Assembly: GCA_002315975.1 (NCBI GenBank)
Contig: DCIK01000021.1
Span: 1 to 27,079 of the forward strand
Origin: Clostridiales bacterium UBA1728
Lineage (GTDB): Bacteria > Bacillota > Clostridia > Oscillospirales > Oscillospiraceae
DNA: 27,079 nt
Reading direction: 5' to 3'
Program-made: the position numbers and the translations under genes
The notes under the pieces: generated by a model
What the model saw: the letters and a program-made list of their open reading frames with translations, nothing else
Told to the model about the DNA's origin: nothing
Database searches by the model: none
Shown here: positions 8,230 to 26,778 of the stretch, in pieces
Numbering within the stretch: the first letter of the stretch is position 1
Layout of the letters: each line of letters starts with the position of its first letter

Positions 8230-8259
8230 TCGAGAGCCGAAGAAAAGGAGCCGTGAGCT

Positions 8260-8637
8260 TTGAAACGCATTCTGTATTTTTTTGTCGCGGCGCTGCTGCT
8301 GGCGGGGCTCGCCGTCTATGCGCTGGGGCAGACTGTGGTGACCTCCGCCTATATCGGAAACTACAGCATTTCCGAGGACGGCAGCGAGCTGCGCTTTTCC
8401 GTAGGTGTGGGTAGCTCCATGGGATATGTCCGCTCCTATAAGGACGAGCACAGCGGAAACGAGCACTATCTGCGCTTCTATTACGCCTGGGGCGGCTTCA
8501 ACAGCCGCTGGGGTGCAAAGAGCGAGTACTTTCTCCCCCTCTCCCCCACCGACACCGCTATCTATGTAAAGCACAGCAAGGGCTATCAGCTCGCGCTGGA
8601 GAAAGACGCAGAAGGGGTTTGGGTGAGGGGTGAATAG
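8260..8637 (+). CDS. small secreted or membrane-anchored hypothetical protein
   Basis: 125-aa ORF with a TTG start 9 nt after AAAGGAG. N-terminal hydrophobic signal/anchor (ILYFFVAALLLAGLAVYALG). No family recognised. Confidence 0.45.
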   Translation: MKRILYFFVAALLLAGLAVYALGQTVVTSAYIGNYSISEDGSELRFSVGVGSSMGYVRSYKDEHSGNEHYLRFYYAWGGFNSRWGAKSEYFLPLSPTDTAIYVKHSKGYQLALEKDAEGVWVRGE

Positions 8638-8686
8638 GCCGCTCTACACTGCCATATTCCTGTAGACTTTTCTTTGTTCTTTACTA

Positions 8687-8714
8687 TTGACACCAATAAA
8701 TCATATGATATACT
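8687..8714 (+). promoter_or_regulatory. near-consensus sigmaA promoter of the TnpB-like nuclease gene
   Basis: TTGACA (8687-8692), 16-nt spacer, TG-extended TATACT (TGATATACT, 8706-8714). It lies downstream of the track's TTG start (8674), which argues for the GTG start at 8737. Confidence 0.6.
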
Positions 8715-8736
8715 TATGTTAAAGGAGGTGAGACAA

Positions 8737-10428
8737 GTGTCGGAAAGCTATTTAGAGCCCATATCAACCTATACCATGAAGCTGCGGCTATACCCCACAA
8801 AAGCGCAGGCAGAGCTCATAGACAAGGCTATCCGTGCGCTTCATCTCGCCTTTAATATGACCTTTCACGAGGTTTTCCAGAAGAACCCGGAGGTGTGCAC
8901 CCAGCCCAACGCAGAGGGGGCAGTCTGGCCGGATTTTAAGAAGATGACCGGGAAAGAATGGCGGCATCGACTGATTGAAATGAATCCGCTCATTGCCGAA
9001 GCACCCGCTCCCGCCATCATGCAAAACGGCGGTATCTTCATGAAAGAGGGGCGCGACGCATGGCCGGGAAACGGTCTTGGTTCAAAAAAGAAATTCTTTC
9101 CGGTTGATATTGTCAGGCGTGAGGATTTTCATTTTTACAGCCAGAATAAGCCGCGAAGAAACTTTACCGTACAGGTAGACGCAAAGAAAATCGTCCCGTC
9201 AGCAAGCAATCCAAAGGTCTGCACCATTGAGTTCCCCCTGTCCGACATCTATCCGGGTGGGAAAAAGCGCCCGAACACCACGGTAAAGGCCAGAGGTTTT
9301 AGCCGCAAGCTCCGTTTTGGAGAGAACGGAGAACACAACTTTGAAGAAGCACTTTCAAACGGAGAGCTGAAAAATGCTTACACCGTAAAGTTTTCCAAAG
9401 ACAATTGCGGCGACTACTACGCCTCCATTACCTTCTCTTGCGGGAAAACCGCCCGGCAAAGCCTGTTCCGTGAGCTGAAAGTCGAATCTGACATTCAGGA
9501 TGTCGGGATCGATGTTGGCATCAAGGATGTGGCCATACTCAGCGCCGGCGATAAGGTAGAAAACAAGCATTTCAAGCAAGCCCGCGACCACACGCTGCGG
9601 AAGCTGAACCGTCAGCTTTCCCGGCGCATGGGCCCGGCAAACATGGCCTATCGGGACTATAACAAAGCCATACGGGCAGAGAATCGCGCTCTCCCGGAGG
9701 GCGAGGAGCCAAAGCCGCTGATGACTCCCAGCAAGCGTTATCTGGAAACCCAGAGAAGAAAAGCGCGGCTGGAGCGGCGCATTGCCAGACAGCGAGAGAG
9801 CTACTATCATGAGCAAACGGAAAGGATTGTTTCCCATGCCTCTACCATTGCGGTGGAAACGCTCATGGTAAAGAATATGCTCCGCAATCACAAATTGGCT
9901 TTTGCCCTCGGTGATGCCGCCATGAGTGAGTTTGTCGCCATGCTCAAATATAAGGCCGAGCGGCGGCACATTCCGATTCTGACCATCGGCACCTTTGAGT
10001 CCTCCAGTCAGCTCTGCTCTGTCTGCGGCTTTCTGAACCCGGCGGTAAAAAATCTGGATATTCGGGAGTGGTGCTGCCCCCAGTGCGGCACAACCCATGA
10101 CCGGGATATCAACGCAGCAAAAAACATACTTGCTATCGCCCAACGAAAGGGCAGCAAGGAAGATATCGAAGAAAACATCAAAGGCCCGCCAAAGCGAAAG
10201 CCCGCCGAGCGCAAGCCAAAGGATACCATCATACTGGAGGACAGGCAGGAGCTGGTGGTGCGCTTCAGCCGGGAGCTGTCAAAATTCAATGCACCGCGTT
10301 ATGTAATCATCAACAAGACGGACGGCACCGTTATCGACGATGGTCAGGGTGCCGGATACAGAAGCATCAGCAACGCGAAAAACTGTTTCAAAGCGAAAAT
10401 GAACTGGTCTGCGAAAAACAAAGCATAA
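8737..10428 (+). CDS. TnpB-like / Cas12-family (type V-like) RuvC nuclease, CRISPR-associated
   Basis: 563 aa from GTG 8737, 8 nt after AGGAGG; alternative starts are TTG 8674 and ATG 8776. TnpB architecture: N-terminal YTMKLRLYPTKAQAELIDKAI, RuvC-I VGIDVGIKD (D codon 9511-9513), RuvC-II IAVETLMVKN (E codon 9856-9858). Also a Zn ribbon CSVCG...CPQCG and RuvC-III HDRDINAAKNI (10096-10128). A CRISPR array follows about 240 nt downstream. Confidence 0.85.
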   Translation: MSESYLEPISTYTMKLRLYPTKAQAELIDKAIRALHLAFNMTFHEVFQKNPEVCTQPNAEGAVWPDFKKMTGKEWRHRLIEMNPLIAEAPAPAIMQNGGIFMKEGRDAWPGNGLGSKKKFFPVDIVRREDFHFYSQNKPRRNFTVQVDAKKIVPSASNPKVCTIEFPLSDIYPGGKKRPNTTVKARGFSRKLRFGENGEHNFEEALSNGELKNAYTVKFSKDNCGDYYASITFSCGKTARQSLFRELKVESDIQDVGIDVGIKDVAILSAGDKVENKHFKQARDHTLRKLNRQLSRRMGPANMAYRDYNKAIRAENRALPEGEEPKPLMTPSKRYLETQRRKARLERRIARQRESYYHEQTERIVSHASTIAVETLMVKNMLRNHKLAFALGDAAMSEFVAMLKYKAERRHIPILTIGTFESSSQLCSVCGFLNPAVKNLDIREWCCPQCGTTHDRDINAAKNILAIAQRKGSKEDIEENIKGPPKRKPAERKPKDTIILEDRQELVVRFSRELSKFNAPRYVIINKTDGTVIDDGQGAGYRSISNAKNCFKAKMNWSAKNKA

Positions 10429-10439
10429 TTCCTGACAAA

Positions 10440-10640
10440 TAAGCAAAGCCGGTGGGAGGTCTGTCCCCACCGTTCTGCGCGAGGTTCCATCGAACACGTT
10501 TCGCTGGCCGCTTCGCACAGAGAACAGACATATCCAAAGTGCAAGGAGCAACAGACCGTTGTTTCGTGAGCAATCGCTGCAGCGGGTGACGCAACCCGGC
10601 ACGGATATGCCACCGTACATTTGTGCAAATGGCTTTTATT
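10440..10640 (+). ncRNA. candidate tracrRNA / omega-RNA-like scaffold ending in an anti-repeat
   Basis: CCGTACATTTGTGCAAATGGCTT (10613-10635) matches the reverse complement of repeat positions 2-24 at 21 of 23 nt and is followed by a T-rich tract. Upstream helices: GGTGGG/CCCACC (about 10451-10471), CGGGT/ACCCG, and a closing pair CATATCC (10529-10535) / GGATATG (10603-10609). The 5' end is not defined. Confidence 0.5.
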
Positions 10641-10667
10641 TTGCTTCATAAAGTGTGCAAATTTGCC

Positions 10668-10896
10668 GAAGCCACTTGCACAAGTGTACGGAGCAGAAGA
10701 CTCTAAAGTTAGCGTCTTTTTTAAAAACTTTAAGAAGCCACTTGCACAAGTGTACGGAGCAGAAGCAGTCTCTGACCGTGTCCTCCTCTCGGATCACAGA
10801 AGCCACTTGCACAAGTGTACGGAGCAGAAGCTCCACTGGGCGGAGCTCCGTCCAGCTCCGGCGGGAAGCCACTTGCACAAGTGTACAGAACTTGTG
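10668..10896 (+). CRISPR. CRISPR mini-array, 4 repeats and 3 spacers
   Basis: 32-nt repeat GAAGCCACTTGCACAAGTGTACGGAGCAGAAG at 10668, 10734 and 10799 (identical). The fourth copy at 10865 keeps the first 22 nt, then diverges. Unique spacers of 34, 33 and 34 nt; period 65-66. AT-rich leader upstream. Confidence 0.85.
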
Positions 10897-11016
10897 GGTG
10901 GCAACGATGAAGTAGGCCGCCCCTCATCCGTCACGGCTGCGCCGTGACACCTTCCCCAAGGGGGAAGGCAAGAGAAGCGCTGTATTTGCGTGCCCTCGCA
11001 TCGCTTTTTGACGAAT

Positions 11017-11050
11017 CAAAACACCCCTGCCGTTTGGCAGGGGTGTTTTC
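11017..11050. terminator. bidirectional rho-independent terminator
   Basis: AAAA-CACCCCTGCC (11022-11031), loop GTTT, GGCAGGGGTG (11036-11045), then TTTTCG. Sits between the CRISPR islet and the 3' end of the aminopeptidase gene. Confidence 0.75.
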
Positions 11051-11053
11051 GCT

Positions 11054-12666: not shown

Positions 12667-13872
12667 TTACAGTATCTGCTCAAACAGTTCCCTCGCCCGC
12701 GCTTCGTAGACCTCCAGGGTGCTGTCATTCCTCAGCTCGTGCTGACAGTGCTCTACAAACCAGCGCTCCTCGTGCTGGGCGGCGATGCGGCTGCGGGCGT
12801 AGTCCTCGCTGATGCCGTCGCGCTTCATGATGCGCTGCATTCTCTGCTCCCGGGGCGCGGTGATGGCGATGGTGGTCATGCAGTGCTCGGCAAGGCCACT
12901 CTCAATAAGGCCGATGGCATCGATGGCGGCCAGCTCTCCGCCCTCCATGGCGAAGGCGCGGAGGCGCCGCTCGCACTCCTCCACCACCATATGGTGCGTG
13001 ATGGCGTTCAGATCGGCAAGGGCAGCGGCATCGTTGAAGACCACCGCGCCCAGCTTTTTCCGGTTCAGTACCCCGTCCTCATAGACCGGCCCGAAGCGTT
13101 TTTCCAGCGCCTCCCGGAGCTCCGGGGAGCTGAGGGTCAGCTCATGATAAACCTCGTCGCAGTCCAGCACCAGTGCGCCCTTTTCCCGCAGGATGTTCAA
13201 TGCGGTGGTCTTGCCGCAGCCGGTGCCGCCGGTGAAGCCGATGACCTTCAGCGCAGAGCGCAGGGCTTCGGCGATCTTCTCCGGGCTCAGTGCACCCTGC
13301 CGGAGGACACGGTAGGGCTTGGCGCTCATGTCCAGAATAGTAGAGGGCTCGCCCTCCTGACACGCTCCCCCGTCGATGACGGCGGGAATTTTCCCCTTGA
13401 AGTAGGCCAGTACCCCCTCGGCGCTGACAGGAGCGGTCTCCCCGGAGGGATTGGCGGAGGGCCCCGCCAATGGCAGAGCGCACTGCCGCAGCAGTGCCAG
13501 CGTCAGCAGATGGTCGGGGCAGCGGAGCCCCACGGTGCTGCCTCCCGCCAGTACCACGGCAGGAATGTGCTCCTTTGCCGGGAGGATGATGGTCAGCGGC
13601 CCCGGCCAGTAAGCGTCCATCAGGGCGTATGCCGCGGCGGGCACATCGTGGCAGAGCGCCTCCGCAGCTTCCTTTCCTGCCACCATCAGCGACAGGGGCT
13701 TGTTCTCCGGTCTGCCCTTGACGGCGTAGATTTCCTCCACCGCTTTGGCATCCAGACCGTTGGCACAGAGACCGTAGACCGTCTCGGTGGGGACGGCCAC
13801 CAGCTTCCCCTCTCGGATGAGGGCGGCGGCCTCGGTCATGTCGGCAAGAGCAGAAAATACGCGGGTTTCCAC
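12667..13872 (-). CDS. fusion protein: threonylcarbamoyl-AMP synthase (TsaC/YwlC, Sua5/YciO/YrdC domain) + dephospho-CoA kinase (CoaE)
   Basis: 401-aa ORF with a GTG start 2 nt after the prfA stop and an AGGAGGG RBS. N-terminal half: VPTETVYGLCANG...KGRPENKPLSL...GPSANPSG. C-terminal half: KVIGFTGGTGCGKTT P-loop plus CoaE-like blocks. Confidence 0.8.
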   Translation of the reverse strand: METRVFSALADMTEAAALIREGKLVAVPTETVYGLCANGLDAKAVEEIYAVKGRPENKPLSLMVAGKEAAEALCHDVPAAAYALMDAYWPGPLTIILPAKEHIPAVVLAGGSTVGLRCPDHLLTLALLRQCALPLAGPSANPSGETAPVSAEGVLAYFKGKIPAVIDGGACQEGEPSTILDMSAKPYRVLRQGALSPEKIAEALRSALKVIGFTGGTGCGKTTALNILREKGALVLDCDEVYHELTLSSPELREALEKRFGPVYEDGVLNRKKLGAVVFNDAAALADLNAITHHMVVEECERRLRAFAMEGGELAAIDAIGLIESGLAEHCMTTIAITAPREQRMQRIMKRDGISEDYARSRIAAQHEERWFVEHCQHELRNDSTLEVYEARARELFEQIL

Positions 13873-18716: not shown

Positions 18717-18826
18717 GGCAATTCTTCCTCTCAAAATTTCTTCTATTATCTAACAAAACAGTTGTAAAATCAAGGGCTATCGTGTATAATTCCATGATAT
18801 GAATCACATTTGGGGGATTTAACGAT

Positions 18827-20485
18827 ATGGACGAAAGCAAAAACTTTATTCACACCTTTGTCGAAGAGGACATGGCAAGCGGCGGACGCTGCGAGGGGAT
18901 GCAGGTTCACACCCGTTTCCCGCCCGAGCCCAACGGCTATCTGCACATCGGCCACTGCAAGGCCCTCTGCATAGATTTCGGCACCGCCCAGAAGTACGGC
19001 GGTCTCTGCAACCTCCGCATGGACGATACCAACCCCGCCAAGGAGGATACCGAGTTCGTGGATGCCATCAAGGAAGACATTCACTGGCTGGGCTTCGACT
19101 GGGGCGACCGTTTCTTCTACGGCTCCGACTACTTTGAGAGAACCTATGAGCTGGCCGAGGACCTCATCAAGCGCGGTCTGGCCTATGTCTGCGAACTGAG
19201 CGCCGAGGAGTTCAGCAAGTACCGGGGCGACACCCAGCACCCCGCCGTTTCTCCCTACCGGGATCGTCCCTGGGAGGAGTCTCTGGACCTCTTCCGCCGT
19301 ATGCGCGCCGGTGAGTTCCCCGAGGGCAAGTACACCCTCCGCGCCAAAATCGATCTGGAGAGCGGCAACTTCAATATGCGTGACCCGGTTCTCTACCGCA
19401 TCCGCTACATTGAGCATCACCGTCAGGGCACCAAGTGGTGCATCTTCCCCATGTACGACTTTGCCCACCCCATTCAGGACGCGCTGGAGGGCATTACCCA
19501 CTCCCTCTGCTCGCTGGAGTATGAGGCGCACCGCCCCCTGTACAACTGGGTGGTGGAGCAGTGCGGCTTTGAGAAGAAGCCCCGCCAGATTGAGTTTGCC
19601 CGTCTGAACATCAACTATACCGTCATGAGCAAGCGTAAGCTCCGCCGTCTGGTGGAGGAGGGTCGCGTGTCCGGCTGGGACGACCCCCGTATGCCCACTC
19701 TCTGCGGTCTGCGCAGAAGAGGCTACACCCCCGACTCCATCAAGGACTTCGCCGAGCGCATCGGCGTGGCCAAGGTGGACTCCACAGTGGACTATGCCCT
19801 GCTGGAGGCCTGCCTCCGCGATGACCTGAACGCCCACGCCGAGCGCGCCATGGCCGTTCTGCGTCCCCTTAAGCTCACCGTCACCAACTATCCCGAGGGC
19901 CAGAGCGAGAGCTTTGACATCGAGCGCAATCCCACCGACGAGAACGCCGGACTGCGCTCTGTGACCTTCTCCCGCAATCTCTGGATTGAAGAGGACGATT
20001 TCATGATCGAGCCCGTCAAGAAGTACAACCGCTTCTTCGTGGGCAACGAGGTTCGCCTCAAGGGTGCCTATATTGTCAGGTGCACCGGCTACAACACCGA
20101 TGCCGACGGCAAGGTCACCGAGGTTCTCTGCGAGTACGATCCCCTGACCCGCGGCGGCGACACCCCCGATGGCCGCAAGGTGCGCGGCACCGTTCACTGG
20201 GTGGATGCCGACAACTGCGGCGAGGCTGAGGTGCGGCTCTACGATATGCTCTTCACCGACCCCGATCCCGACGGCGCCGACAAGGACTTCATGGACTGCC
20301 TGAACCCCGAATCCCTCGTGACCCTGACGGGCTGCAAGGTGGAGAAGTTCCTCTGTGATGTGAAGCCCACCGACCGCTTCCAGTTCCTGCGCATGGGCTA
20401 CTTTGCCCCCGACAACAAGGACAGCAGCCCCGAGCATCTGGTGTTCAACCGCGCCGTTGCTCTGAAGGACAGCTTCAAGAAGTAA
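18827..20485 (+). CDS. glnS: glutamine--tRNA ligase
   Basis: 552 aa. RFPPEPNGYLHIGH (HIGH motif), VMSKRK (KMSKS motif), and GlnRS-type C-terminal anticodon-binding region. Confidence 0.92.
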   Translation: MDESKNFIHTFVEEDMASGGRCEGMQVHTRFPPEPNGYLHIGHCKALCIDFGTAQKYGGLCNLRMDDTNPAKEDTEFVDAIKEDIHWLGFDWGDRFFYGSDYFERTYELAEDLIKRGLAYVCELSAEEFSKYRGDTQHPAVSPYRDRPWEESLDLFRRMRAGEFPEGKYTLRAKIDLESGNFNMRDPVLYRIRYIEHHRQGTKWCIFPMYDFAHPIQDALEGITHSLCSLEYEAHRPLYNWVVEQCGFEKKPRQIEFARLNINYTVMSKRKLRRLVEEGRVSGWDDPRMPTLCGLRRRGYTPDSIKDFAERIGVAKVDSTVDYALLEACLRDDLNAHAERAMAVLRPLKLTVTNYPEGQSESFDIERNPTDENAGLRSVTFSRNLWIEEDDFMIEPVKKYNRFFVGNEVRLKGAYIVRCTGYNTDADGKVTEVLCEYDPLTRGGDTPDGRKVRGTVHWVDADNCGEAEVRLYDMLFTDPDPDGADKDFMDCLNPESLVTLTGCKVEKFLCDVKPTDRFQFLRMGYFAPDNKDSSPEHLVFNRAVALKDSFKK

Positions 20486-20496
20486 AAAAGATATGC

Positions 20497-20529
20497 AAAA
20501 AACAGGCTGCAAAATTGCAGCCTGTTTTT
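20497..20529 (+). terminator. rho-independent terminator after glnS
   Basis: AAAAAACAGGCTGCA-AAATT-GCAGCCTGTTTTTG, a stem flanked by A and T tracts (could act in both directions). Confidence 0.8.
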
Positions 20530-20582
20530 GCATAAAGACAAGGGAGGCTTCTCTGTCTTGCAATCCGCATCCCCCGTCCCCT

Positions 20583-20830
20583 GTAGGGCTCGGCCTCCCG
20601 GACGAGCCGCAGAGAAAAAGGATTGCCGCGTCGCTGCGCGAAATCGCAATCAGGATGAAGGGATTCATCGCCATGAACGAAAGCCCTGTGGCTCCCTCTG
20701 CGAGGGAGCTGCCCCAGTGCGCTCACTGGGGCTGAGGGAGAGAGGTTCTTTTGAGCTGTTTCGTAGACGATCCCTCCCTCAGTCTCGCTGCGCGAGCCAG
20801 CTCCCTCATCTGAGGGCGCCAAGAAAGGGT
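20583..20830. repeat. intergenic hairpin-repeat cluster including a variant of the MITE arm
   Basis: GTAGGGCTCGGCCTCCCGGACGAGCCGC (20583-20610) is a variant of the 12492 arm and is identical to the copy at 23688. Further hairpins: GCTCCCTC/GAGGGAGC and CCCCAGTG/CACTGGGG. Confidence 0.75.
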
Positions 20831-25078: not shown

Positions 25079-25778
25079 ATGCCTGAAAAGCTTTGGTGCA
25101 AGAGGCTTTTTCAGAGCAGAAGGTGCAAATGGCTGTCCGCAGCGGTGCAGATGCCCGTTCTCAGATGCTCAAAATGCTCTTTTCTGCCGGAAACTGTAAA
25201 AGCTATCGTTTCAAAACGGAGTAATCATGTAAAATTTCAACTGCCCGGAGGTGTGACCACATCGGTCTGCTCCGGGCGGTTTGTTTTGCAGATTTTCACC
25301 GAATTTACGGAGTGCAAGCTACATATTGCTATGCAGAGGGCAATTGCTTACCTTTCTTGTCTTTTTTTCATGTCTGCCTTGTTTGAGTTTTATGTGCTAT
25401 ACAAGGAAAAGCACAAGCGAAAAGAGTCCAGTTGCAATGAAAAATTTCACCTCGGGGGTTAATCCAAGGGTTACTAAATTTGCAAGACCGCTGAAAGCGG
25501 TGTGAGCCGCCTACAGCAGTCCTTTTGTTGCCTCCAGAACGTTTGTCATAAGCATCCAATGTTGTTACTCCCACTGATGTGGTGGCTACATCATTTCTGT
25601 GTAGCTCTTACGGTCACCCGCAAGTTCAGACTGTGCCTTCATCCCCGGAGGGATGCTCCGTGTCCAGTCGTTACACCTTCCCGTTTATGGGCTTGGCTCG
25701 GCGTTTTCTGCAAAGCCAGTTTATCACAGTTCTTCGGCTATTTCTACACCATTTTTGAAGCTGAATACGATTCGGTCA

Positions 25779-26348
25779 TCATACCACATCGTCAAAGGTG
25801 AGAGCGGAGGTGGAAACGCCCGTCTGCGCTCCGAGGGTATTATGGAGGATTCCTGTCGGCTCGTCCGTACCGGTGCCGGTGACGAATGCCTTGTCCTCCG
25901 CTCCGGCGAAGGCTCTGGCAAAACGCTTGATGACATAGTCCTTGATGTCGAAATTCGCATCGGAGACGAACTCGCAGGGCAGACGGAAGATAGCGGACAG
26001 CTTGTACCGATCGACACCGATGGGCGTGAAATCGTCCTTGATGTCCGTGACGGAGATAGCGCCGCCCTCGGGGACGAACTCCGCAATATCATTGCTGTCG
26101 GCGGCAAATATACGAGTTGCCGTTCCGTAGCTCTTGTGGACGGATGCGAGCTTGCGGAATACGCTCTCCTTGCTCAATGCCTTGTCATAGGCGGCATCTG
26201 CCTCGTTGGACAGATAGTAGGTGCTGCCGCCGACAAGACGGCACTTCTCAAGGGTGGCAGAGCTGTTTTTCCTGCCGCGGAGATGGTCGCAGAGTTCACG
26301 GTCATATTCGGGCAGACCGCAGGCCCAGAAGTTTTCGATAGCGTTCAT
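25779..26348 (-). pseudogene. HK97-family phage major capsid protein, 3'-truncated fragment
   Basis: 189-aa ORF with a strong RBS (AGGAGG). Phage_capsid-like blocks: SVFRKLASV, AEFVPEGG, YKLSAIFRLPCEFVSD, AEDKAFVTGTGTDEPTGIL. It stops right after LTFDDVV, where about 120-150 more residues are expected, and no continuation is seen in any frame. Confidence 0.6.
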
Positions 26349-26363
26349 AGTGATTTCCTCCTA

Positions 26364-26612
26364 TCAGGTCTTTTCGCAGACGGGGCACTTGTACAGTCCC
26401 AGAACATGGGAACTGCGGCATCTGCCGATCTGCTTCATGATGTGCGTCTTGCACTGGGGGCAGTAGATGTCGTACTTGAGAGCATCCTCGATGGTGTGGG
26501 GCTCATACGCATGGAGACGGTAGACGGTGTGATACTTGCTGTAGTCCGATGCCTTCCGGGGATACATCTCGCTCTTTGTGCCGGGAGCGATACCGATTGC
26601 TCTGAATTTCAT
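26364..26612 (-). CDS. small phage-associated Zn-ribbon protein
   Basis: 82 aa from ATG 26612 (GAGGAGG RBS 8 nt upstream). CPQC...CPVC pair. The longer 179-aa ORF extension lacks an RBS and overlaps the terS fragment. Confidence 0.5.
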   Translation of the reverse strand: MKFRAIGIAPGTKSEMYPRKASDYSKYHTVYRLHAYEPHTIEDALKYDIYCPQCKTHIMKQIGRCRSSHVLGLYKCPVCEKT

Positions 26613-26676
26613 AGTGCTTTCCTCCTCGTTGCATTTCGTTTGTTTGTAGGACAAGAGGACAATCGGGACAACCCGT

Positions 26677-26778
26677 TCTGCCGCCGGGATTGCCGGATGC
26701 CACTTTTTCCGTGATTGCTTTCGGTTTTCTACCGGAACCGGGGCGAGAACCGCCTCGGCTTGTTCCGTCTTTAGCCAT
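26677..26778 (-). pseudogene. phage terminase small subunit (P27 family) N-terminal fragment
   Basis: MAKDGTSRGGSRPGSGRKPKAITEKVASGNPGGR resembles the conserved P27-type terS N-terminus (GRPPKP...GNPG). The remainder of ORF 26503-26778 is unrelated and overlaps the Zn-ribbon gene. Confidence 0.4.

Follow-up and report, generated by a model that had tools for sequence, protein, structure and literature searches.

A probable TranC-type miniature CRISPR locus in an Oscillospiraceae gut bacterium

Organization of the locus

We analyzed a stretch of 27,079 nucleotides (the window) from Clostridiales bacterium UBA1728 (assembly GCA_002315975.1, contig DCIK01000021.1, positions 1-27,079, forward strand), in which a gene for a compact RuvC nuclease is followed on the same strand by a putative trans-activating CRISPR RNA (tracrRNA) plus a short CRISPR array (Table 1). 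Very probably it is a miniature type V-like CRISPR system of the TranC (LaTranC-like) kind in an Oscillospiraceae gut bacterium. The TranC 'transposon-CRISPR intermediates' were described by Jin et al. (2025, Cell 188:6283), as that work is cited in PMC13639567 and PMC13565253; their type member is LaTranC, from a Lawsonibacter sp. Each property of TranC systems that can be tested computationally is found here, and those that define an IS605 transposon, Cas12f or Cas12n are missing. Absences and copy counts at the level of the genome refer throughout to the 27-kb window and to the contigs that carry other loci of the family.

The open reading frame (ORF) of the nuclease extends mechanically from 8674 to 10428 on the + strand. 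The GTG codon at 8737, which gives a product of 563 amino acids (aa), is most likely the start, because a ribosome-binding site (AAAGGAGG) and a promoter precede it and because the identical 563-aa product has been called in a JGI metagenome (P0001). Downstream of the stop codon, no + strand terminator was detected ahead of the bidirectional one at 11018-11049.

Table 1. Features of the putative TranC locus, in window coordinates.
Feature	Position	Strand	Basis or remark
Sigma-70-like promoter, TTGACA-16-TATACT, TG-extended	8687..8714	+	11/12 consensus matches
Ribosome-binding site, AAAGGAGG	8721..8728	+	read from the sequence; conserved in L002 and L003
Probable TranC effector gene, 563 aa, TnpB-derived RuvC nuclease	8737..10428	+	LaTranC homology, Pfam, NCBIfam
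RuvC-I catalytic Asp D259 (GIDVG)	9511..9513	+	invariant in 24 family members
RuvC-II catalytic Glu E374 (AVETL)	9856..9858	+	invariant in 24 members; aligns with ISDra2 TnpB E278
Zinc ribbon C427-x2-C430...C447-x2-C450, TNB domain	10015..10086	+	all four Cys invariant in 24 members
RuvC-III catalytic Asp D457 (HDRD)	10105..10107	+	kept in at least 90% of 24 members; aligns with ISDra2 TnpB D361
Conserved C-terminal domain, aa 498-563 (DDxQGxGYRS...NAKNCxKAK)	10228..10425	+	highly conserved in the family
Predicted tracrRNA scaffold	10450..10636	+	RNAalifold consensus, 12 lineages
Stem 1 hairpin	10450-10472	+	invariant GGUCUGUC loop
Stem 2	10477-10484 / 10511-10518	+	RNAalifold
Stem 3	10529-10535 / 10603-10609	+	RNAalifold
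Anti-repeat	10613-10636	+	19-pair duplex with 10668-10691 (repeat nt 1-24)
Leader between anti-repeat and first repeat	10637..10667	+	ends in conserved TTTGCC (12-lineage alignment)
CRISPR array	10668..10886	+	32-nt repeats at 10668, 10734 and 10799; degenerate terminal copy at 10865
Array spacers	10700-10733, 10766-10798, 10831-10864	+	34, 33 and 34 nt
Bidirectional intrinsic terminator, 14-bp stem	11018..11049	.	ends both the unit and the M18 aminopeptidase gene that converges on it

The effector protein

The protein has the layout of TnpB and Cas12 nucleases that an earlier note on this sequence had described, with an intact RuvC triad (D259, E374, D457), a CxxC..CxxC zinc ribbon and an N-terminal RLYPT. 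In an alignment of 24 family members the surrounding KLRLYPT is invariant or nearly so. Pfam assigns the domains Cas12f1-like_TNB (PF07282, residues 398-464) and OrfB_IS605, and residues 332-466 align to residues 236-370 of ISDra2 TnpB (8bf8). The translation contains no CxxC in its first 250 residues and thus no N-terminal zinc finger, in agreement with the earlier note.

The best match in the Protein Data Bank (PDB) by phmmer is LaTranC (9jfq_A, E=2.1e-185, residues 9-561 against 14-573), to which the protein is 52% identical by BLASTP. ISDra2 TnpB (2.5e-33), Cas12n (9j09; 1e-8) and Cas12f (3.5e-4) are the runners-up. In the profile searches that the earlier note had proposed, the NCBIfam model guided_TnpB was passed (172 bits with a cut-off of 100), IS200_TnpB scored 209 bits, and every Cas12 subtype cut-off was missed by far (Cas12f2 at 48.8 bits against 450, c2c8 at 71 against 350), which bears out the view that the protein is nearer to plain TnpB than to Cas12f. 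The best PADLOC model is Cas12u4 with 127 bits, covering aa 227-494 only. No Cas12f model of PADLOC scores above 122 bits, and the majority match nothing beyond the RuvC/TNB half; one spans residues 11-469 at 116 bits, scoring under the TnpB models. A search for homologues returned over 100 clusters of proteins of 520-586 aa with 46-73% identity and the same architecture, one of which (P0070) bears the UniRef name 'LaTranC'.

The predicted tracrRNA scaffold

The interval between the stop codon and the first repeat is predicted to encode a conserved structured RNA. In an alignment of these intervals from 12 lineages, the scaffold consists of three stems, beginning 22 nt past the stop codon in the window, and an anti-repeat whose duplex with the repeat was counted as two further helices. 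Compensatory double changes occur in 24 of 43 pairs, and 90.4% of cells are paired. All 500 shuffles stay below the real alignment on each of five measures, and slid partners give 31-50% pairing. Folded as a single sequence, the 255-nt RNA of the window has a minimum free energy of -109.8 kcal/mol (z = -7.3).

Nucleotides 10615-10635 are the reverse complement of repeat nucleotides 2-22 at 19 of the 21 positions, a correspondence matched by none of 100 shuffles, and RNAduplex gives -39.4 kcal/mol for the anti-repeat:repeat duplex. The duplex is preserved by differing sequences across lineages (for example in L223 and L219 as compared with the window). Over the anti-repeat, the tracrRNA matches that of the orthologous locus L002 exactly. 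The anti-repeat that had been noted earlier between gene and array is one part of a conserved, covarying tracrRNA, and the guide scaffold as predicted from these alignments is split into a tracrRNA with the anti-repeat and the repeat of the CRISPR RNA (crRNA).

The GCAGA of the repeat probably forms a pseudoknot with the invariant UCUGU in the loop of stem 1. Both sides of this pairing are almost invariant and hence give no covariation signal. The omega-RNA of TnpB has a comparable pseudoknot. Only tRNA-Ala scored above the Rfam gathering thresholds, and no Rfam family was found for the tracrRNA region; with relaxed settings, the stretch 10380-10920 gave nothing but noise, namely sub-threshold matches of miRNA hairpins to the hairpin formed by anti-repeat and repeat.

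The CRISPR array and its spacers

The first three repeats are identical (GAAGCCACTTGCACAAGTGTACGGAGCAGAAG) and the fourth is degenerate 3' of nucleotide 22, with a spacing of 66, 65 and 66 nt from one repeat to the next. The array starts 239 nt past the stop codon, and its distance from the gene, its repeats and its 33-34-nt spacers are as the earlier note had given them. The 3' end of the repeat, GGAGCAGAAG, adjoins the spacer and is invariant across the family; the last ten nucleotides, (G/A)GAGCAGAAG, are invariant and unpaired in all family repeats. No second array was found in the window. Most of the leader is variable, apart from the hexamer TTTGCC at 10662-10667 (consensus TTTTGCC), which is nearly invariant in the 12 lineages and may be a signal of the leader-repeat junction.

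The array is a genuine CRISPR array, as had been claimed, because its spacers turn over between strains. Two related loci, L002 and L003, encode a protein 73% identical to that of the window and share with it the repeat, an identical anti-repeat and the adjoining M18 aminopeptidase gene. L002 has nine spacers and L003 at least four, none of which is common to the window or to one another.

Further relatives came from two kinds of search. The scan of GTDB genomes with the full-length alignment used the peptide pattern RDINAAKNI, which is generic for TnpB, so 79 of its 80 loci are ordinary TnpBs and L004 (Faecalibacterium sp. UBA1771) is the sole family member among them. Metagenomes and IMG/VR were rescanned with an alignment of the C-terminal domain as the query, which is family-specific, and the metagenome scan brought to light two more clades. 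The first, a common one in the human gut, has 0-4 spacers that vary between samples. The second has 3-18 spacers followed by a conserved terminal unit, with an A/G polymorphism of the repeat restricted to the trailer end, as is expected if new units copy the leader-proximal repeat. Overall, arrays in the other clades hold 0-18 spacers and vary between strains.

Three spacers of the human-gut clade match phage contigs from human faeces at 34/34, 33/34 and 30-31/32 positions (with one weaker record at 29/32). The 5' flanks of the three protospacers are ATTC, ATCC and ATTT/ATTC, which fits the TTC protospacer adjacent motif (PAM) published for LaTranC. The window's spacers have no self-match within the window.

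Several relatives show other states of the array. In L095 (540-800), a member of the human-gut clade, the gene and the tracrRNA are kept and only the terminal degenerate repeat is left. In L109 (4190-4250), L110 and L111 the terminal repeat abuts the stop codon, the tracrRNA and array being deleted and the gene intact. L222 (2429-2700) and L223 (2124-2400), which carry members P0110 and P0104, have a full tracrRNA and a single repeat, whose end is AGCAGAAG; what comes after it is unique sequence with no second repeat. This single-guide state looks like either an ancestral arrangement resembling a TnpB guide RNA (reRNA-like) or a fully collapsed array. Finally, L087 (5276-5340) and L102 (4432-4498) have only their first spacer in common, and the second spacer of L087 is a variant of that of L094 (4384-4451), with one mismatch and a length of 33 instead of 36 nt. 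Spacer sharing among these three loci breaks a simple leader-to-trailer order and suggests array recombination or repeated sampling of one protospacer.

Genomic context

The cassette is flanked by a 125-aa lipoprotein-like ORF (8260-8637) and the M18 aminopeptidase gene, as previously noted, and the large ORFs of the window are housekeeping genes. They encode URO-D-family, VanY, Obg, ClpP-like, Sua5-CoaE, RF1, FBPase, MatE and EamA proteins and a PucR-type regulator, in addition to the M18 aminopeptidase. The other family loci each lie in a different housekeeping neighbourhood. Neither the ORFs of the window nor those of some 14 further loci of the family were found to contain a tnpA (Y1) or serine transposase domain, and no homology to the ends of insertion sequences (IS) was found. 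The further loci likewise have no cas1, cas2 or cas4 and no second array. The earlier note had allowed for a protein nested among multi-copy IS605 elements with recognizable left (LE) and right (RE) ends, or for repeats belonging to such an end; neither was seen in the window or the related loci. The window contains one copy of the cassette, and the exact protein occurs on one looked-up contig besides the window's own NCBI contig.

When the window is compared with L002, similarity sets in at the -35 box and carries on through the gene, the tracrRNA, the terminal repeat and the terminator as far as the M18 gene; a conserved left end of a transposon is therefore absent. In the flanks, the M18 and Obg proteins share 90%-identity clusters with metagenome-assembled genomes of Oscillospiraceae, including 'Candidatus Apopatocola equi'. 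In one relative with an M18 protein at least 90% identical (L224; GCA_024404375.1), the PucR-type regulator and the M18 gene are separated by 154 nt (8396-8549), compared with 8230-11053 in the window, and this empty site has no TranC gene, array or lipoprotein ORF. The lipoprotein-like ORF is also absent from L002 and is therefore a separate variable insert. The GC content of the TranC gene is 52.3%, compared with 58.5% for the window. The start of the L002 similarity, the empty site and the lower GC content of the gene point to a cassette that was horizontally acquired or lost and is chromosomally fixed within a lineage, rather than to an active insertion sequence.

At one locus, L220 (1-787), about 2 kb separate the TranC gene from an upstream cas3 gene with Cas3_HD and helicase domains. 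That genome therefore combines TranC with a type I system and, possibly, with the adaptation module of the latter.

Identity of the locus

Several observations weigh against the assignment to TranC. The array is short and its terminal repeat is degenerate, and the large ORFs of the 27-kb window contain no cas1, cas2 or cas4 domain, just as the earlier note had reported for these genes. No targets of the window's three spacers were found in GenBank phages and PLSDB (blastn) or in IMG/VR (exact 22-mers), nor any of the 13 spacers of L002 and L003 in GenBank phages and PLSDB plasmids (blastn). The three independent protospacers that indicate the PAM all come from another clade of the family. Lastly, the comparison with TranC draws on PDB entries and on papers that cite Jin et al. 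Some of these points would also be expected of a decaying or repurposed remnant, in which an orphan mini-array stands beside a domesticated TnpB that does not cleave (a guide-RNA-directed repressor akin to TldR or Cas12m) or is inactive: three spacers only, a degenerate last repeat, no detected targets and no adaptation genes in the window. A parallel is offered by a sister clade, in which the array has collapsed (L095) or the gene has outlasted the deletion of tracrRNA and array (L109-L111). We nevertheless regard a remnant as unlikely. The protein retains a conserved catalytic triad and zinc ribbon, both intact, the predicted tracrRNA is complete and the same as that of L002 over the anti-repeat, the promoter and ribosome-binding site are strong, no spacer matches the window itself, and LaTranC, to which the protein is homologous, has nuclease activity (bioRxiv 10.1101/2025.09.28.678669).

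That the locus is an ordinary TnpB transposon of the IS200/IS605 or IS1341 type, its 'repeats' being part of the right end, is highly improbable, even though the generic guided_TnpB model is passed, the best relative outside TranC is ISDra2 TnpB, and the single repeat followed by unique sequence in L222 and L223 resembles a single omega-RNA guide. We rejected an IS identity on the missing tnpA and the lack of a conserved left end. In addition, related strains keep the same M18 neighbour while their 33-36-nt spacers differ completely, the spacers of relatives match phages and not the flank, and there is no second copy in the window. Less credible still is a divergent member of Cas12f (V-F) or Cas12n (V-U4). 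Such a reading could appeal to the Cas12u4 and several Cas12f models being the best of PADLOC, and to the Pfam name of the zinc-ribbon domain. However, the PADLOC matches lie mainly in the RuvC/TNB half, and the one longer match ranks under TnpB models. The NCBIfam scores are 5-9 times under their cut-offs, and the PDB E-values for Cas12f and Cas12n are far weaker than that for TnpB. The protein also has no N-terminal zinc finger, its C-terminal tail is a conserved folded domain, and the tracrRNA lies wholly past the stop codon. A TranC system thus remains by far the best account of the locus.

Comparison with known systems

The structure of LaTranC has been determined by cryo-electron microscopy (PDB 9jfo, 9jfp and 9jfq). 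It is a protein of 574-575 aa that uses a 5'-TTC PAM and a single-guide RNA scaffold of about 157 nt with stems 1-3 and a triplex, and it has been evolved into the editor TranC11a (bioRxiv 10.1101/2025.09.28.678669). The homology between LaTranC and the protein described here (563 versus 575 aa) extends over the full length and includes the same conserved C-terminal domain. The two kinds of locus also agree in an array of 32-nt repeats downstream of the gene, a tracrRNA between gene and array, the lack of adaptation genes nearby and a gut host of the Oscillospiraceae/Ruminococcaceae type, and the 5' flanks in relatives of our locus are TTC-like. The sole contig that carries LaTranC is 1.8 kb long, without downstream sequence, and the direct alignment is thus one of proteins only. 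In this alignment 48% of the residues are changed, and the repeat and spacers of the window are specific to the locus. An insertion of about ten residues, FPLSDIYPGGKKRPNTT (aa 166-182), is absent from LaTranC and most of the aligned family; it also occurs in P0002, and P0100 has a longer insert there. Conversely, a 13-residue insertion of LaTranC after aa 319 is absent here.

A preprint describes TranC clade 11 as having an expanded REC/WED region, a long structured C-terminal domain, repeats of 32-36 nt (median number 5) and Ruminococcaceae/Oscillospiraceae hosts, and as being free of associated accessory genes (10.64898/2026.03.27.714800). Judged by that description, the locus probably belongs to clade 11.

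Every residue of the RuvC triad and the zinc ribbon has its aligned counterpart in ISDra2 TnpB (E278/D361), and the N-terminal RLYPT helix is shared. Both systems have a guide scaffold encoded just 3' of the gene, a guide at the 3' end of the RNA and, presumably in the case of our locus, a T-rich 5' adjacent motif. The present protein has about 155 more residues than ISDra2 TnpB, with a larger REC/WED region and the folded C-terminal domain. Its predicted scaffold is split into tracrRNA and repeat, with exchangeable spacers in place of a guide fixed by the flank. It has no tnpA or transposon ends, and its predicted RNA begins past the stop codon, whereas that of TnpB begins inside the ORF. Cas12f and Cas12n resemble the present system as compact, TnpB-derived RuvC effectors with a tracrRNA:crRNA guide and a 5' PAM, many of their loci being without adaptation genes. 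The similarity is distant, however, and confined to the RuvC/TNB core, and the N-terminal zinc finger of the Cas12f type is missing. The tracrRNA of Cas12n is reported, in the same preprint, to lie within a disordered C-terminal coding tail (10.64898/2026.03.27.714800); that of the window is not embedded in such a tail.

The family appears to have arisen independently from an IS605-type TnpB. The earlier note had suggested an independent TnpB-to-Cas12 recruitment, and this stands in the form in which it has been published for TranC. The novelty that it implied does not, since such proteins have already been described, solved and engineered. The locus is a diverged orthologue of this recently published kind and opens no new class.

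TranC systems are the clearest living intermediates between the nucleases of TnpB transposons and type V CRISPR effectors, and they are in development as genome editors of under 600 aa. To these the locus adds a natural orthologue at 52% identity with a defined promoter, tracrRNA, repeat and terminator. The same site with differing arrays in related strains and an empty site in a close relative provides an informative population context, and the differing arrays document spacer turnover in a system without adaptation genes nearby.

Proposed mechanism

The mode of action that we infer begins with a single transcript, which probably starts at the promoter (8687-8714), takes in nuclease gene, tracrRNA region and array, and stops at the terminator (11018-11049). 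Co-transcription followed by processing is the simplest arrangement, because one promoter and one terminator bracket the unit and no + strand terminator lies inside it. TnpB processes the 3' end of its own mRNA into omega-RNA. The 5' end of the tracrRNA may arise by a similar processing of the mRNA 3' end, and maturation of the crRNA could use the long anti-repeat:repeat duplex. Pairing of the anti-repeat with nucleotides 1-24 of every 32-nt repeat would rebuild in two pieces the single omega/reRNA scaffold of TnpB.

The 563-aa nuclease would bind this dual RNA, find DNA complementary to the spacer beside a 5' T-rich (TTC-like) PAM and cut it with the D259/E374/D457 site. For LaTranC, such RuvC-mediated cleavage that depends on a PAM has been shown. 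The outcome would be defence against phages and other mobile DNA. Spacers are presumably acquired in trans through the Cas1-Cas2 of another system, or by some other route.

The C-terminal domain

An AlphaFold2 model of the C-terminal domain shows a beta-beta-beta-alpha fold with a pLDDT of 92. The domain belongs to no Pfam or PHROG family and has no fold match in the PDB at E below 0.6. A profile search of 1.84 billion representatives found it in 599 clusters. Among the 150 clusters listed, most are proteins of 50-250 aa that carry the domain at their N terminus.

In addition, 46 IMG/VR phage contigs (16-640 kb; L168-L213) encode small proteins of about 130 aa in which the domain forms the N-terminal 55 aa or so. 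Examples of these stand-alone proteins, with the motif DDAQGxGYRS...NAKNCYKAK, are found at 5983-6381 in L168 and 5977-6363 in L183.

It is conceivable, although we consider it improbable, that the C-terminal domain of TranC is a small mobile module that serves stand-alone loci as a handle for something undescribed. If so, it might recruit a host or foreign adaptation or repair factor and thereby allow spacer turnover without cas1-cas2 in cis. Alternatively, it might be the target of look-alike decoys encoded by phages (anti-TranC proteins).

Other features of the window

Two paralogues of the URO-D family are encoded on the - strand of the window, at 66-1160 and 5515-~6660. The second of them borders the cassette region on its upstream side. 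In L002 and L003 it lies directly upstream of TranC, and there a RelB/ParE pair is found between the ClpP-like gene and the URO-D gene.

A 401-aa ORF at 12667-13872 (-) fuses a Sua5/YciO/YrdC (TsaC-like) domain to one of dephospho-CoA kinase (CoaE), and the same fusion is present in L084 and L224. Two further ORFs have no Pfam match. One is the 353-aa ORF at 25653-26714 (+). The other, of 634 aa, at 18770-20674 (-), contains a 21-nt tandem repeat in two copies at 19009-19051.

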